A DNA stretch of 64,000 nucleotides. Origin: an uncultured delta proteobacterium (lineage in GTDB: Bacteria; Desulfobacterota; Binatia; UBA9968). The notes beneath the pieces were generated by a model. It was not told where the DNA came from, searched no databases, and saw only the letters and a program-made list of their open reading frames with translations. Each line of letters starts with the position of its first letter. Position 1 is the stretch's first letter. Positions 36,868 to 62,621 of the stretch are shown piece after piece. The stretch spans positions 128,001 through 192,000 of the forward strand of contig CAVSHR010000007.1 in NCBI GenBank assembly GCA_963727625.1, written 5' to 3'. The position numbers and the translations under genes were made by a program.

Positions 36868-37874
36868 GGGTCAGACCTGAGTATTGACTTATTGGCGCAC
36901 CTTTGGATATGTTCACCGGCATGGCCAGGAAACCGCGGGTGGAATTTGAAGGGGCGTTTTGCCACGTCATCGTCCGTGGCAATCAGCGCCGGAAGATCTT
37001 TCGCGAGGATCGGGACCGGTTTTACTACCTGGAACGGGTCGAGCACTACCGGCAACGCTATCGATTTAGAATCTACGCCTACGTCCTGATGTCCAACCAC
37101 GTCCATTTCCTGATCCAAACAGGCAAGACACCACTATCGAAAATCCTCCAAGGAATTCAGTTTACATACACCCAATACTATAATCGCCGTTACCGAACAG
37201 TCGGCCATCTCTTCCAAGGTCGGTACAAAGCGATTCTTTGTGACCGGGATGCGTACCTTTTGGAGTTGGTCCGCTACATTCACCTCAACCCCGCTCGTCT
37301 GAAACACCCTGAAGAACTCGCCACCTTTCGGTGGAATAGTCACGGTACCTATTTAGGAAAGAAGGGGCCGGTCGCCGTCGATACCACACTGGTTTTGAAT
37401 CAATTGGGAAACTCGGCAAGCCAGGCTTATAAGGCATATCAACGATTTATCGAGGGCGGGCGGGGCCTGGGGCACGACGATCGTTACTACCAAGCGATCG
37501 ATCAGAGATTTCTGGGCGATGAGAAATTCATTGGGCACATGGCCAAGCGAGCGCCAAAGGCCGAGATCAGACCAGGCGGACGGAAGCTGCCATTTGAAAA
37601 GCTACTGCCCGCGGTGGCTCAGGTTCATGGATGCGGCGTCAAAGAACTCACGGCGGCTGGACGGCAGCGCGCGTGGGCCAAGCCGCGAGCGCAGCTTGCA
37701 TATTTGGCGCGCGAGTGGTGTGCCATGAAGGCAATTGAGGTTGCTCGTTGGCTGAACCGTGATGCATCCATGGTGAGCCGGCTCTGCGCGAATTATGAAG
37801 CAGCTCGAGATTCTAAGACGGAAAAGAAGATTGCTGAGTTGACCGACAAATAATTCATAACTCAGGCCTGACCC
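36868..37874 (+). mobile_element. RAYT-type element bounded by 23-bp terminal inverted repeats
   Basis: Left GGGTCAGACCTGAGTATTGACTT (36868-36890) versus right AATTCATAACTCAGGCCTGACCC (37852-37874); 19/23 complementary. Confidence 0.8.
36921..37853 (+). CDS. REP-associated tyrosine transposase (Y1 HUH) with C-terminal DnaA-like HTH
   Basis: MARKPR, HVIVRGN, YVLMSNHVH (HUH), GHLFQGRY, VRYIHLNP. Confidence 0.9.
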   Translation: MARKPRVEFEGAFCHVIVRGNQRRKIFREDRDRFYYLERVEHYRQRYRFRIYAYVLMSNHVHFLIQTGKTPLSKILQGIQFTYTQYYNRRYRTVGHLFQGRYKAILCDRDAYLLELVRYIHLNPARLKHPEELATFRWNSHGTYLGKKGPVAVDTTLVLNQLGNSASQAYKAYQRFIEGGRGLGHDDRYYQAIDQRFLGDEKFIGHMAKRAPKAEIRPGGRKLPFEKLLPAVAQVHGCGVKELTAAGRQRAWAKPRAQLAYLAREWCAMKAIEVARWLNRDASMVSRLCANYEAARDSKTEKKIAELTDK

Positions 37875-41623: not shown

Positions 41624-42487
41624 ATGCCTACCTTATATAACCCGAAAAACAAATTCCCTATCGAAGTTTCCGACGTCGAGTTTCGCCGCGCGCCGACGCG
41701 GACGTTGATGGCGCGGCTCTATCGGCCCCAGGGCGACGGGCCGTTTCCAGTGCTGCTGGATTTGCACGGCGGCGCTTGGAACAACCAGGACCGCGGCGCC
41801 AACGCGGCGATGGATCAGAACCTGGCATCGAGTGGAATTCTAGTTGTCGCCGTCGATTTGACCCGCGCGCCGGAGGCGCCCTATCCTGCCTCGGTACAGG
41901 ATGCCAACTACGGCGTGCGCTGGCTCAAGCACAAGGCGCGCGAGTGGAACGGCGACCCGGCGACCCTGGGCGCGCTGGGGAGCTCCAGCGGCGGCCATGT
42001 GGTCGAGCTTTGCGCGATGCGGCCCCATCATCCTTTATACAGCGTCCACAAGCTCGCCGAGGCGCCCGCGCTCGACGCGACGGTCAATTACGTGGCCACC
42101 CGGTCGCCGGTAAGCGATCCCTACGCGCGTTACTTGAACGCGGAAAAATTGGCCAGAGAAGAAATGATGCAGAACAGCAAGAACTATTTTAACCCCTGGG
42201 ATACCATTCATGAGGGAAACCCGCAGGAAATCCTCGACCACGGCGAGAAGGTCACTTTGCCGCCGCTCTTGATCATGCAGGGCGAGCTCGACGATAACGT
42301 GCGGCCGGCGGTGCAGCAGAAATTTGTCGATAGCTACCGCGCCGCCGGCGGCGAATGCCAATATGAGGTCTTTGCCGGCTGCGAACACCTGTGGATTCGC
42401 GAGCCGGGGCCGCAAACGGACCGCGCCTACGAAATCGTCAAAGCGTTTATCTTGAAGCAGTTGAAAGCCAAACGGCTGGCGGCGTAG
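41624..42487 (+). CDS. alpha/beta hydrolase (HSL-like esterase)
   Basis: HGGAW, GSSSGG nucleophile, QGELDD, GCEH; RBS AAGGAGG. Confidence 0.9.
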   Translation: MPTLYNPKNKFPIEVSDVEFRRAPTRTLMARLYRPQGDGPFPVLLDLHGGAWNNQDRGANAAMDQNLASSGILVVAVDLTRAPEAPYPASVQDANYGVRWLKHKAREWNGDPATLGALGSSSGGHVVELCAMRPHHPLYSVHKLAEAPALDATVNYVATRSPVSDPYARYLNAEKLAREEMMQNSKNYFNPWDTIHEGNPQEILDHGEKVTLPPLLIMQGELDDNVRPAVQQKFVDSYRAAGGECQYEVFAGCEHLWIREPGPQTDRAYEIVKAFILKQLKAKRLAA

Positions 42488-42511
42488 GGGCGACCGGCCG
42501 GTCGTCCCTAC
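42484..42511. repeat. GTAG-type REP palindrome
   Basis: GTAGGGGCGACCGGCCGGTCGTCCCTAC between convergent genes. Confidence 0.7.
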
Positions 42512-42515
42512 ACTG

Positions 42516-42962
42516 TTATCTTTTTCCGGCGAACCGCCGGTGATCGACCATCAGTCAACGGTCTTGCACGACTTTGATTCCCGCACGGGCGAAGTTTTCC
42601 GCGGCGCCGTCATTGCGGATGCCGGACTGAAACCAAACCGAATTCGGTTTTTTCTCCAGGATATCGTCGACATGTCGGGCGATATCCGGGGATCGGCGAA
42701 AAACGTCGACCATGTCGATTTCGCCGGGAATATCGATCAATTTGCGATAAACTTTCTGACCGAGAATCACCGTCGCGTCCGGATAGTAGACCGGCACGGG
42801 AATAATTTCGTAGCCGGCCTCTTGCATATAGAGCGGCACGTAAACCGACGGCTGATCGGCCTGCGCTTCGGTCTTGATGCCGAGCACGGCGATGCGCCTG
42901 GTGTGAAGGATCAAATCGCGAATCTGCTCGCTGCTCTGAAGCAGGTTGTCTTGCCAGTTCAT
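42516..42962 (-). CDS. YccU-family CoA-binding protein, putative selenoprotein (UGA at 42555-42557)
   Basis: IAVLG, YVPLYM, DMVDVFR, VWFQSGI, then VVQDR-UGA-LMVDHRRFAGKR-TAA. UGA aligns with the conserved DRC cysteine. Confidence 0.82.
42526..42540 (-). promoter_or_regulatory. bacterial SECIS-like hairpin of the CoA-binding gene
   Basis: mRNA CCGGCG-GUU-CGCCGG; loop G is 21 nt after UGA. Confidence 0.65.
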
Positions 42963-43126
42963 GGCGCCAGTCTAGCAAAAGAATGTGAGATCCCGAACCT
43001 TAAACTTGAGCCTTAGCCTTGACGCCCGGCGCTTTGGCGTATTAATAGCCGAACATTCAGGGCAGTCGGCGTGCATTGCGAACCAAAGCGACGTGGCCGT
43101 TTAACCAGTACAAAGGACAAAGCTCT

Positions 43127-45358
43127 ATGGCTGATTTTAAAGTAGTTGGAACTCCGGTGCCGCGCGGTGAAGGTAGCAAAAAAGTCAGGGGCCAAACGGT
43201 TTATGCCGCCGATGTAAAACTCCCCGGTTTGCTCTGGGCGAAAGTCCTGCGCAGCCCGCATCCCCATGCGCGGATTCGCAGCATCGATATATCCAGGGCG
43301 GGAAAAGTCCCCGGCGTGCGTGCGATCCTGACCGGCGAAGACGTCAAGGGCCGGTTCGTCGGCAAGCAGATCCGCGACATGCCGGTGCTCTGCTGGGACA
43401 AAGTTCGTTTCGTCGGCGACCGGGTCGCGGCGGTGGCGGCGGAAACCGTCGACGCGGCGGAAGAGGCGATCCATTTAATCGACGTCGATTACGAAATACT
43501 GCCGGCGGTTTTCGAACCGCTCGAAGCGACGGCGCCGAGCGCTCCGACGATTCATGAAAACGTCGCCGGCTACGCCGGCGGGCCGGAAAAAATTCTCGCC
43601 GCCGATTTGCATAACGGGCTGACGCGGCTCAAGTGGGAGAAGGGCGACGTGGAAGCCGGATTTCGCGACTCCGATCTGGTCATGGAACATACGTTCTATG
43701 TTCCGGCGCGCCATCAGGGCTATCTCGAACCGCACGCGGCGAGCATCGCCATCGAAACCGACGGGCGGATTCAAGTCTGGGCCTCGGTCAAAAATCCCTT
43801 CAACGTGCGCACCCAATTGGCCAACGGCATCGGGGTTGCCGAAGAGCGCATCCGCATGAATCCGGTGAATGTTGGCGGCGAGTTCGGCGGCAAGGGCGAC
43901 GGCGTCGAGCTGCCGGTGATTTATTTTCTCGCGCAAAAGGCGGGAAGCCCGGTGAAGCTCGTCATGAGCTACGCCGAGGAATTGTCGGCGAGCAATCCCG
44001 CCCATCCGACCGTCATCACGATCAAGAGCGGCGTAATGCGCGACGGGCGCCTGGTCGCGCGCAAGATGCGCGCGGCGCACGCCAGCGGCGGTTATGGCGC
44101 GCTCAAGTCGAATACCTCCTTGGCGACCTGGCACTACGCCGGCGGGCAATACCGGGTCGACAACGCCGACATCGAATATCTGCAAATTTACACCAACACG
44201 GTGCCCGGCGGTTATTACCGCAGCCCGGGCGCAGTGGCCACGGCATTTGCCGTCGACGGCCATACCGATATCCTCGCCAAGGAGCTCGGCATGGACCCGG
44301 CCGAGTTCCGTCTGAAAAATTTCTTGCGGGAAGGGGAGGCGGACGCGGTCGGCCACGAGCTGCACAACGTGCGCTTCCGCGAAGTGCTGCAGGGGGCGCT
44401 CGGCGCGGCCGGTTGGGAGAAAACCAAAAAGCGCAATCGCGGCCGCGGTATCGCGCTGTCCGGCCGGCATATCAGCGGCGGCGACACGGGGGTGATCCTG
44501 CGCGCCGATCCGGACGGCGGGTTTTCAATCATCAGCCCGAGCATCGATCAAGGCTCGGGGACGCACACGATCTTGCGCCAGCTGGTCGCGGACCAGATGA
44601 AAATGCCGATCGATCAGGTGCGCGTGGTCATCGGCGACACCGACAGCGCGCCGCGCGACAGCGGCATGCGCGCAAGCCGGATGACCTACGTGGCGGGCCA
44701 AGCGATGATGCAAGCCTGCGACAAGCTGCGCGAGCGTTTGCTCGACCGGGCGGGGCGGCTGTTGGAATGTTCGGCGGATGAAGTGGATTTCGCCGCCGGT
44801 CGATTTTCCCTGCGCCAGGACCCCGGGCAGCAGGTTTCGTTGCGCCGCGTGGTGGCCCAAGCCGCTGAACCCCTCGAAGCGATGGTTTACGAAGACTATC
44901 CTTACCCTGAAGACATTTCTTACCTTTGCGCCCAGGTGGCCGAGGTCGAAGTGGACCCCGACACCGGCGCCGTGAAGCTCTGTCGCTTCATCAGCGCCCA
45001 CGACGTCGGCACGGTGATCAATCCGGCGATGCACCAGGGTCAGATCGACGGCGCGACGATCATGGGCATCGGCCAGGGCATCATGGAAGAGCTGGTGATC
45101 GACGGCGGCAAAGTAACCAATAACAATTTAGGCGACTACAAGCTGCCCTCGATCAAAGACATTCCCGAGCTGAAAACCGTGCTGGTCAAATCCACCGGCG
45201 GCGTCGGCCCGCTGGATTCCAAACCGATCGGCGAGTTCGCCAACAACGCGCCGCCCGCCGCCATCGCCAACGCCATCGCCGACGCGGTGGGCGTGCGCTT
45301 GTTCGAGCTGCCGGTCAAGGCAGAGCAAATTTATCAGGCGTTGAAGGAGAGGCGCTGA
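43127..45358 (+). CDS. xanthine dehydrogenase family molybdopterin-binding (large) subunit, paralog 2
   Basis: RSPHPHARI, GGEFGGK, YYRSPG, QIDG, KPIGE; paralog of 21818..24076. Confidence 0.92.
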   Translation: MADFKVVGTPVPRGEGSKKVRGQTVYAADVKLPGLLWAKVLRSPHPHARIRSIDISRAGKVPGVRAILTGEDVKGRFVGKQIRDMPVLCWDKVRFVGDRVAAVAAETVDAAEEAIHLIDVDYEILPAVFEPLEATAPSAPTIHENVAGYAGGPEKILAADLHNGLTRLKWEKGDVEAGFRDSDLVMEHTFYVPARHQGYLEPHAASIAIETDGRIQVWASVKNPFNVRTQLANGIGVAEERIRMNPVNVGGEFGGKGDGVELPVIYFLAQKAGSPVKLVMSYAEELSASNPAHPTVITIKSGVMRDGRLVARKMRAAHASGGYGALKSNTSLATWHYAGGQYRVDNADIEYLQIYTNTVPGGYYRSPGAVATAFAVDGHTDILAKELGMDPAEFRLKNFLREGEADAVGHELHNVRFREVLQGALGAAGWEKTKKRNRGRGIALSGRHISGGDTGVILRADPDGGFSIISPSIDQGSGTHTILRQLVADQMKMPIDQVRVVIGDTDSAPRDSGMRASRMTYVAGQAMMQACDKLRERLLDRAGRLLECSADEVDFAAGRFSLRQDPGQQVSLRRVVAQAAEPLEAMVYEDYPYPEDISYLCAQVAEVEVDPDTGAVKLCRFISAHDVGTVINPAMHQGQIDGATIMGIGQGIMEELVIDGGKVTNNNLGDYKLPSIKDIPELKTVLVKSTGGVGPLDSKPIGEFANNAPPAAIANAIADAVGVRLFELPVKAEQIYQALKERR

Positions 45359-45522
45359 AGAAGAATTTTCGAAACCGGGTGATTGACCGCCAAGAGCACA
45401 AAGGGAACATGGAAAAGAATTAGGAATCGGATAGTTTAACTGCAAAAGAAACAGACAGCGCAAAAAGGAAATTGGCATTGAAGGGGACGCGATTTATTGC
45501 GTCCGTTTCGAGAGAGGTTGTG

Positions 45523-46353
45523 ATGTCGCAGACAATTGAAATGACTGCGGTGCAGTCGACGTTGAATTATATCATTCCAGATGGCGAGAAACCGGTGACG
45601 ATGTCTAACCTGCCTGGTGAAGTCAGGGTCACGAGCAATACGGGGAAATACCAGGCGCACGCGGTGACGATCCGCAATGGCCGGTTGGTGACTGGCTTTT
45701 CGTTGGAAAAGCAAGGTTTCATTTTCGTCAAGCATGAAACCAAGGTGAAAGATTTCTACGACGACGCGGAGGTCAAGCGCGTCTATTATCCAGAGATCGA
45801 GCAGCTGGTGCAGCAGGCCACCGGGGCGGCACGTGTGCTCGTTTTCGATCACACGCTACGGGCGGAGAACGACGAGGTGCGCGAAGAGAAATTCGCCAGC
45901 CGGCCGGTGCGTAGCGTGCACAATGATTACACCGAGTGGTCGGGGCCGCAGCGGGTGCGTGATCTATTGCCGAAGGAAGAAGCCGAAGCGCTGATCCGCA
46001 AGCGCTTCAGCGTGGTTCAGGTCTGGCGACCGGTGCGCAATCCAGTCGTCTCGGCGCCGCTGGCAATCGCTGATTCCGCGAGCATCGCCGAGAAGGATCT
46101 GGTCGGCACCGAGAGGCGCTACCCGGACCGCGTCGGAGAAATTTATCATCTGGCTTACAACCCAGAGCATCGCTGGTTTTATTTTCCCTACATGCAGACC
46201 GACGAAGCGATTGTCTTCAAATGCTACGATTCCATGAAAGACGGCCGCGCCCGCTGGTCCGCCCACGCCGCCTTCGACGATCCCAACAGCCCGCCCGACG
46301 CGCCGGCGCGCGAGAGCATCGAGATGCGCACGCTGGCGTTCTTCGACGATTAA
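45523..46353 (+). CDS. CmcJ/NvfI-like oxidoreductase (Fe/2OG-type)
   Basis: YYPEIE, VFDHTLR, VHNDY, QVWRP, PLAIAD, HAAF, RESIEMR. Confidence 0.8.
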   Translation: MSQTIEMTAVQSTLNYIIPDGEKPVTMSNLPGEVRVTSNTGKYQAHAVTIRNGRLVTGFSLEKQGFIFVKHETKVKDFYDDAEVKRVYYPEIEQLVQQATGAARVLVFDHTLRAENDEVREEKFASRPVRSVHNDYTEWSGPQRVRDLLPKEEAEALIRKRFSVVQVWRPVRNPVVSAPLAIADSASIAEKDLVGTERRYPDRVGEIYHLAYNPEHRWFYFPYMQTDEAIVFKCYDSMKDGRARWSAHAAFDDPNSPPDAPARESIEMRTLAFFDD

Positions 46354-61281: not shown

Positions 61282-62571
61282 TCAGACTTCTTCTTGAAGC
61301 GTTTGCAGCGCGCGTAGGATCAATTCGCGCCGGAATTCTTTTTCTTTGTCCGGAGGCAAGTCAGGATTGCCGGTGGGACTGACGATGCCGCCGGAGGCAA
61401 TCGCCCGGAGCGAGCCAACTTCTTTGGCCACCGGGATCATCGTGCAGATCTGTGTCACGGGGATTTCCAGCTTTTCGATTTCCTTGCTGATCGCTGCGCC
61501 GCAGCGGGTGCTCGAACCTCAGGTCGAGGTCAGAATCACACCGGTGACGTTCGCGGCTTTCAGCTGATCGGCGATCTGCCGGCCGATCTGCGTGGCGTTT
61601 TCGACGGCGGCGTGGGCGCCGCCGGTGGAGCGGACAAATTCATGCAATTTTCCGATTATACCCTCGCGTTCCAGCTCGCGCATGGTGTCGAGCGGTACCA
61701 GCCGGTTCGGATCGCGGTTGGCGGCGGCGGTGTCATAGCCGGAGTGGACGGCGTCGAATTTATCGGCGTCGAGGGAATTGACGCCGGCGATCGGGATGGT
61801 CGTGAAGCGCGTCGGGCGGCCGGGCTCGATCTTGTCGGGGTTACCTTCGGGCACCAGGCCTCCGTCGGTGACCAGCGCGATCACCGCTGATTTTAAATCG
61901 CGCAGCGGCGCAGCGGGTTTGCCGCCAGCGAATTTTGGCGGTGCGATTTCCGATTCAAATTCCGCACCGCGTAATTTGGCCAGCAGCATGTCGACGGCGC
62001 GCTCGGCCGGCGGTTTGGCGGCAAACTCGTTGCGCTTGATGCCGCGCTGCAGATAACCTTCGCTTTCGGGTCTGCCGATGGCGTCGCGGCGCACCAGCTT
62101 CACGCCGAGGATAGCCATGCGCTGCAGTGTCGGCACCATACGCGCGATCGATGCACCGGAATTGACGATGAAGATATGCTTTCGATAGAGACCGGCGCCG
62201 ACGTTGTCTTCATCCATGCCCGCCACGGCGACGATGTTGAGACGCTGTTGCGCCGCCAGGCAAATTGCGCCGCAGGCGATGCCGTAGCGGCCGCTCTCGA
62301 ACGCAGGACCGGCGATCAGCAAGTGCGGTTTGTATTCGGCCATTTGTTGAATCAATTGATCGTTCGCCTGCTCTTGCTGCTCGGCAAAATAGTTATCTCC
62401 ACAAAAGATTGTCGCGACGATTTCGCCGTGCTCGCCCAGCGCCTGCTGCAGCGCGCGGCCTGGGCCGATCAGACCCGCTTTCACCTGCGGCCCGACGTCC
62501 GCTTTGTCTTCACCACCGATTTGGGCGAAGAATTGATTCAAGTAGTGCACGACACGAATCTTTGTGTTCAT
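61282..62571 (-). CDS. grdB: glycine/sarcosine/betaine/D-proline reductase family selenoprotein B (Sec at 61519-61521)
   Basis: VVHYLNQFF, CGDNYF, GPAF..GRYG, ALVTDGG.VP.GNPD, DPNRLVPLD, LTST-UGA-GSSTRCGA; reads through to LQTLQEEV*. Confidence 0.88.
61492..61506 (-). promoter_or_regulatory. bacterial SECIS-like hairpin of grdB
   Basis: mRNA CGCUGC-GGC-GCAGCG; loop G is 19 nt after UGA. Confidence 0.7.
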
Positions 62572-62621
62572 CTCTCCAGCTCCGAGCGTAATCATTTGTC
62601 TCAATTAGGGAAAGAAGATTC

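Follow-up and report, generated by a model that had tools for sequence, protein, structure and literature searches.

A very probable selenocysteine form of the PF13380 family of CoA-binding proteins encoded by an uncultured member of the Binatia

The stretch of DNA analysed here (64,000 nt; hereinafter, the window) contains a gene for a putative CoA-binding protein of the YccU family that is called as ending at an in-frame TGA, which raises the question of whether this codon is a genuine stop or specifies selenocysteine (Sec) and, if the latter, what a selenium-containing residue might do in such a protein. The original prediction held that the open reading frame ends at VVQDR* and yet runs on in frame to a TAA, that the UGA occupies a conserved cysteine position, and that a hairpin, CCGGCG-GUU-CGCCGG, lies 15–29 nt past the UGA and shares its architecture with the hairpin that follows the UGA of a grdB gene in the window. 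The gene was found to lie on the minus strand, which had not been specified (Table 1), and each of these sequence claims was borne out, as detailed below.

Reading frame, protein fold and downstream hairpin

Translation of the end of the gene with table 11 yields ...AGIKVVQDR*LMVDHRRFAGKR*. In the Pfam search, the truncated 135-aa product covers positions 1–109 of the 116 positions of PF13380 (94.7 bits), and the 148-aa read-through product covers positions 1–115 (107.6 bits, with a cut-off of 22.8); the latter contains no cysteine besides the residue 136 site. An AlphaFold model of the read-through protein with Cys at that site predicts a Rossmann-like fold with a pLDDT of 97.4, a value that pertains to an alignment-based model, single-sequence folding having given 34.8. 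The solved single-domain members of PF13380 include TT1466 from T. thermophilus (1IUK/1IUL), PH1109 from P. horikoshii (2D59/2D5A, and engineered variants 3Q9N/3Q9U/3QA9) and the K. pneumoniae protein 2DUW, and the top fold matches of the model are 1IUL, 1IUK and 2D59; for these and 2D5A, TM is 0.83–0.85 (0.85 for 1IUL and 2D59) and rmsd is 1.4–1.8 Å. The protein shares with these relatives the fold, the length and the FR, WxQxG and (D/N)R-C motifs, but differs from them in having Sec in place of Cys, GIK and PVPV in place of GAS/GAH and PVNP, a putative in-frame SECIS, and an additional N-terminal segment with a tryptophan (W3) that is invariant among the rows compared.

The TGA occupies the "(D/N)x-C" position characteristic of the C-terminal part of the family, aligning with the cysteine of TT1466, PH1109 and 2DUW. 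In an alignment of 61 rows picked for length coverage, where the query row shows C by tool convention, this column is one of just two that are invariant, with Cys in all 60 other rows. In the model, residue 136 immediately precedes the final helix (residues 137–146), which is encoded wholly 3′ of the TGA, so that a real stop at this codon would entail the loss of both the invariant cysteine and the terminal helix.

Table 1. Positions of the gene, its signals and the neighbouring features in the window
Feature	Position	Strand	Basis
Convergent alpha/beta-hydrolase (BD-FAE/Abhydrolase_3), synteny only	41624..42487	+	Pfam search
12-bp palindrome between the CoA-binding gene and the convergent hydrolase gene; terminator-like or repeated element	42484..42511		sequence
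CDS of the 148-aa stand-alone CoA-binding protein (PF13380), read through probable Sec136	42516..42962	-	ORF translation, Pfam search, model
Predicted true stop, TAA, 13 codons past the TGA	42516..42518	-	translation
SECIS-like stem-loop, 6 G-C pairs and 3-nt loop GUU	42526..42540	-	fold, covariation, published criteria
In-frame TGA, probable Sec136, at the invariant DR-C cysteine, right before the last helix	42555..42557	-	sequence and alignment
Divergent xanthine-dehydrogenase-family molybdopterin subunit, synteny only	43076..45358	+	Pfam search
grdB-family TGA (61519-61521) and its G-loop hairpin (61492-61506), internal reference	61492..61521	-	sequence

The hairpin was located at +15 to +29 relative to the UGA, and its loop begins 20 nt after this codon. 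The folding energy of the 48-nt region is -16.0 kcal/mol (z -2.56), a stability reached by 3 of 200 shuffled sequences. According to the available text of the 2026 inventory of prokaryotic selenoproteins (PMC13188914), a bacterial SECIS has a loop of 3–9 nt with a G among its first two nucleotides, an upper stem of 4–16 bp, a spacing of 16–37 nt and a minimum free energy of at most -7.5 kcal/mol; with the GUU loop, 6 bp, 20 nt and -16.0 kcal/mol per 48-nt region, the hairpin conforms to every one of these published values. Searches of the locus gave no Rfam match of note and no match to a sigma-70 promoter.

Several observations bear on whether the hairpin is maintained. A strict G-loop hairpin is present at 80 of 85 TGA loci versus 3 of 101 Cys loci (duplicates and close kin counted), and one of the five TGA loci that do not have it is cut by the end of a contig. 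Among 17 same-genus rows, the third position of four-fold codons is invariant at 5 of the 6 such codons past the TGA, the exception being a Gly codon that ends just outside the stem, compared with 2 of 31 on the upstream side. The ten rows that have a 4-nt loop show alterations on both sides of two stem pairs, one synonymously and the other with a change of two amino acids; across these rows, 98.6% of the cells are paired and covariation reaches 0.257 versus at most 0.130 for slid partners, a value attained by none of 500 shuffles, the rows being related to one another. The count of double-changed stem pairs in the same ten rows is no higher than in shuffles (241 of 500). Judged from this conservation pattern, the hairpin is under selection. 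Some Sec-form genes (L202, L213, L193, L208 and L232) have atypical or weakened hairpins, with 5-bp stems or a mismatch beside the loop and the G still 20 nt past the TGA; these could be useful for defining a minimal SECIS.

Selenocysteine machinery and distribution of the Cys and Sec forms

The genes required for Sec insertion, for which a search elsewhere in the genome had been proposed, are all present: selA, selB and selD are adjacent and score above the profile cut-offs, and tRNA-Sec, the sole tRNA with a TCA anticodon among 49, is encoded 50 kb from them. The selD gene itself (L003, G000:C5:718540-719466) bears a TGA, in the context AG*AAK, and in the minimum-energy fold of the 55 nt that follow, a loop with a G lies at a greater downstream distance than it does in either grdB or the CoA-binding gene. 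In the window grdB, with which the hairpin had been compared, there is likewise a 6-bp stem with a G-first 3-nt loop, located 18 nt past the UGA versus 20 nt in the CoA-binding gene. This gene (61519–62604, minus) encodes a GrdB/GrdF-family selenoprotein B with a tail of the UxxxxC type (T*GSSTRC) rather than UxxC; two further GrdB-family copies in the genome read T*GTSTRSG, with no Cys past the Sec. There are four long matches to PF07355 in the genome, and a widened grdB motif matched 8 of 12 loci.

A search of 61 related genomes identified an orthologue covering the TGA site in 35. Within the same genus, TGA stands at the site in 19 of 20 orthologues, two of which contain frameshifts upstream, and TGC in the remaining one; the two other genera sampled from the family of the source genome have Cys. 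In a sister family, f3, the 13 orthologues divide into 4 with TGA and 9 with Cys. Thus, besides the source genome, TGA is found in 22 genomes, which are related and hence non-independent observations, and 21 of these encode selA, providing the Cys/UGA pairs at this column that had been proposed as a check. The only one of the 23 TGA genomes without a selA match, G009, is split into 670 contigs, one of which begins with a fragment of selD. Given that selA is also present in 11 of the 12 Cys genomes, the machinery permits the Cys-to-Sec change but does not force it. In every TGA orthologue, the tail retains, in frame, the residues of the Cys homologues; the identity and position of the terminal stop differ among orthologues, whereas the tail residues do not. 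Sampling the class and the phylum more widely, with 58 of 251 and 136 of 301 genomes matched, respectively, revealed no additional Sec lineage, and the 135 other matches in the phylum sample have no TGA inside the match. TGA flags in three genomes (G096, G178 and G264) were rejected as terminal stops, the site itself being Cys.

In metagenomes, a motif containing the TGA had at least 116 matches; among the 80 stretches retrieved, 55 are homologues (E<1e-5) with TGA, and 53 of these 55 have a G-loop hairpin under a relaxed rule, compared with one of the remaining 25, an apparently frameshifted homologue. A weak metagenome match, L230, has a TGA and no hairpin. A search of database contigs that was seeded with a Cys-form peptide, and hence biased towards Cys, returned 75 Cys and 5 TGA contigs among 80, the latter five being duplicates of the same-genus genomes.

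The same-genus genome with TGC, G027, keeps the stem of the hairpin, although the G of the loop is replaced by C, and its assembly (92% complete) gave no match to selA, selB, selD or tRNA-Sec. We rejected this genome as a case of reversion to Cys after loss of the Sec machinery because its two readable grdB genes (of three loci) keep both TGA and hairpin; its use as a control is further undone by the finding that the DNA upstream of selA could not be found either. Taken together, the retained grdB features and the missing DNA suggest an assembly gap, so that the state of G027 reflects either incomplete assembly or Sec use having been lost very recently.

Phylogenetic trees of the upstream part of the protein contain three supported Sec clades, namely, the source genus (100/97), an f3 subgroup lodged among Cys relatives (100/84) and a clade of metagenome sequences (99/99) that includes one member listed at NCBI as Candidatus Rokubacteria; a further Sec row, L202, stands apart from all three. 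The f3 subgroup has its own version of the hairpin, with a 7-bp stem and a GGC loop placed three bases further downstream, and its tail also is different. A single clade of all Sec rows plus the nested Cys row was rejected (p-AU 0.003; 67 rows, 130 columns, LG+G4), and the minimum number of Cys/Sec changes on the tree is five, a count that is blind to gain versus loss and comes from a short alignment of hand-picked rows. The simplest reading of these trees is several gains of Sec.

The competing explanation of the locus is that the UGA is a real stop, yielding a truncated protein or a pseudogene, or else a sequencing error, with the hairpin being a terminator or a chance structure. Database annotation is compatible with a stop, as 74 of the 120 best database matches are annotated as ending at DR, and so is the genomic background, in which some 2% of ordinary stops have such a hairpin after them: 97 of 4820 long ORFs ending in TGA (2.0%), 75 of 3794 ending in TAA and 53 of 3106 ending in TAG. 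However, truncation would discard the invariant Cys and the last helix, the tail is in frame with the residues of the Cys homologues in every TGA orthologue, and the hairpin tracks TGA rather than Cys and is not followed by a U-run. Furthermore, the TGA recurs in 23 genomes and in 55 metagenome contigs (among 80 of at least 116 matches), and its recurrence in 19 genomes of one genus already renders a sequencing error implausible. We therefore consider a stop or an error highly improbable. On this comparative evidence, in all likelihood bordering on certainty, the UGA is decoded as Sec by SelB and tRNA-Sec via the hairpin 15–29 nt downstream, so that a protein of 148 aa with a Rossmann fold and Sec136 is made, and the gene very probably is a real, selenocysteine-containing form of a known family with no characterised function. 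The central claim of the original prediction, that this YccU-family protein is a selenoprotein, is accordingly backed by the TGA in relatives, the conserved tail and the Sec machinery.

Genomic neighbourhood and domain fusions

The neighbourhood comparison revealed no operon and no conserved redox partner, pointing to lineage synteny only, with the flanking genes oppositely oriented. ORFs related to the convergent hydrolase are found in 35 loci, 33 of them Sec loci, and ORFs related to the divergent molybdopterin subunit in 26. Near-identical copies of the palindrome that separates the gene from the hydrolase occur 3′ of several orthologues, suggesting a genus-wide repeated element or a bidirectional terminator. 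A 96-nt tRNA-Met reported by ARAGORN within the molybdopterin-subunit gene (43496–43591, minus; G000:C7:171496-171591) is probably spurious. Downstream of the molybdo-enzyme gene lies a gene for a CmcJ/NvfI-family oxidoreductase (45472–46353, +; NF041278, 325.6 bits), and the ORF at 36903–37853 (+) encodes what we take, from its translation, to be a transposase-like protein of the REP-associated type.

Longer forms of PF13380 account for 17 of 234 candidates and are either sporadic fusions or gene calls extended too far; no redox partner recurs among the 17. The fused domains are YedF/TusA in P0160, ArsC/LMW-PTP in P0133, a methyltransferase in P0307/P0310 (clusters of 22 and 5 members) and glyoxalase in P0311. 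The source genome itself encodes seven long PF13380 paralogues above the Pfam cut-off.

Chemistry at residue 136 and relation to known proteins

The original prediction also proposed that the residue is reactive towards CoA, an idea that gains support from published work on the Cys form, as far as the available text of the sources goes. In the engineered PH1109 variant of PDB 3Q9N, a distance of 2.7 Å separates Cys129 of IIVANRCMMREHE from the CoA thiol, and Glu133 is nearby (PMC9312308, Table S3 for the distance); the position of this glutamate corresponds to Asp140 in the protein described here. By analogy, Sec136 would take the place of the single residue that is in contact with the bound CoA's thiol in the solved relative. 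In B. subtilis, Cys126 of YneT (TVIMDLC-IK) is disulfide-linked to CoA in spores and under diamide, YneT being one of four CoAlated proteins identified in dormant spores and having no function ascribed to it in the accessible part of that report (PMC8127865). YneT (Q45065) is a putative CoA-binding protein of 135 aa, the CoAlated VIMDLC peptide of which matches VVQDRU by eye, with Cys in YneT, unlike the Sec here. Given that CoAlation affects more than 2000 proteins (PMC10136147), the CoAlated state of YneT is no proof of catalysis. Cys-to-Sec changes, as described in the available part of PMC1794560, tend to fall on catalytic redox cysteines.

Both the Cys and the Sec members of the subfamily have GIK and PVPV where solved CoA binders have GAS/GAH and PVNP/PVSP, and retain FRR, WxQxG and the acidic residue four positions past the Cys. 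By our mapping of the numbering, the GIK and PVPV positions contact the 3′-phosphate and the adenine in 3Q9N, so the ligand could differ, and CoA binding is assumed in what follows.

We suggest, at about even confidence and largely by analogy with these relatives, that the protein is a one-Sec, CoA-coupled redox enzyme that cycles through Se-S-CoA. CoA would bind in the Rossmann groove with its thiol next to Sec136, and the selenolate, located where the last helix begins, would attack an oxidant, either a peroxide or a mixed disulfide of CoA or a protein. The oxidised selenium would then be captured by CoA as Se-S-CoA, and, because there is no resolving cysteine, the enzyme would be regenerated by a second CoA-SH or by thioredoxin. 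The selenolate is presumably stabilised by the helix start. In B. subtilis, TrxA and YtpP are reported, in the available text, to strip CoA from proteins (PMC10136147). The proposed action resembles that of monothiol glutaredoxins and 1-Cys peroxiredoxins with CoA in place of glutathione, but the analogy is functional only: in place of a thioredoxin fold with a CxxC-type motif, the protein described here has a Rossmann-like fold and a single Sec.

Other roles for an inserted Sec, the actual reaction of which we infer, are conceivable. A rather unlikely one is that of a sulfur or selenium carrier, with Sec136 exchanging sulfane sulfur with CoA persulfide or passing S/Se to cofactor pathways, similar to rhodanese, DsrE and TusA. 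The CoA-thiol geometry of 3Q9N would serve such a carrier equally, rhodanese and DsrE-like selenoproteins feature in the inventory (PMC13188914), P0160 joins the YedF/TusA selenium-metabolism domain to a partial PF13380, and in 26 loci the divergent neighbour encodes a molybdo-enzyme; however, the P0160 fusion is known from just one record, in which neither part is complete, and may be an assembly chimera, and the molybdo-enzyme gene is on the opposite strand and missing from the typical contexts of the other Sec clades. A role without catalysis, in which the protein stores CoA or senses redox state, protecting or releasing CoA through reversible Se-S-CoA, seems doubtful: the presence of YneT among the four CoAlated spore proteins and the want of a partner enzyme linked to the gene would fit, but repeated gain of a costly Sec codon together with a SECIS is more usual at catalytic residues. 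Still more doubtful is a nucleophile acting on acyl-CoA thioesters, as a thioesterase or in acyl transfer via a selenoester. The nucleophile is indeed located at the CoA sulfur in 3Q9N and the fold is common to the CoA-binding domains of acyl-CoA synthetases, yet the sole published modification found for the equivalent Cys is the CoA disulfide and nothing in the present analysis indicates an acyl pocket. The thiol-redox reading is better supported than the thioester one.

The CoA-coupled redox enzyme that we favour differs from proteins with comparable features. The Sec-containing CoA-disulfide reductase (TIGR03385, UGxP; PMC13188914) likewise forms a Cys/Sec pair, has a G-loop SECIS and carries a redox-type residue acting on CoA, but it is a large flavoprotein, whereas the protein described here, a Rossmann domain of 148 aa with a DRU motif, lacks both a flavin domain and a second Cys. 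The CoA-binding domains of the alpha subunits of succinyl-CoA and acetate-CoA ligases have a related fold (TM ~0.6) but are parts of frames of 325–900 aa, unlike the stand-alone protein here, which scores far below the ligase cut-offs.

The Sec form of PF13380 is not catalogued in the sources examined, although this type of recoding is itself familiar. The 2026 inventory (PMC13188914), which lists 119 families of prokaryotic selenoproteins in its Table 1, has no entry for PF13380, and no selenoprotein model of NCBIfam 20.0 matches the protein. No such family is named in the available text of deep-Sep, BSepDB, SelCysML, the Haft and Gwadz preprint or the Actinomarina preprint, nor did a literature search, with the BSepDB family table, RefSeq annotations, subscription journals and groundwater MAG candidates outside its scope, return a description of a PF13380 Sec form.

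The finding would thus add to the bacterial selenoproteome a family that gene callers truncate. Separate Sec clades, each with its own hairpin, would offer a clear example of how SECIS elements can arise in sequence that is constrained by coding. More tentatively, the whole YccU/YneT family might be a dedicated CoA-dependent monothiol redox enzyme with an enzyme-S/Se-S-CoA intermediate, in which Cys was converted to Sec repeatedly and independently under selection for rate, with a separate SECIS built by each lineage within the coding sequence of the last helix. PF13380 is present in 11 of 14 control genomes (stand-alone and fused domains pooled), and the Sec form would pinpoint the reactive residue in a family that is spread across bacteria and archaea and for which structures, but no function, have been determined. 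With Sec at the very residue in contact with the CoA sulfur, the designation 'putative CoA-binding protein' may give way to a concrete hypothesis, CoA redox catalysis, that is cheaply testable on the Cys forms of laboratory bacteria.
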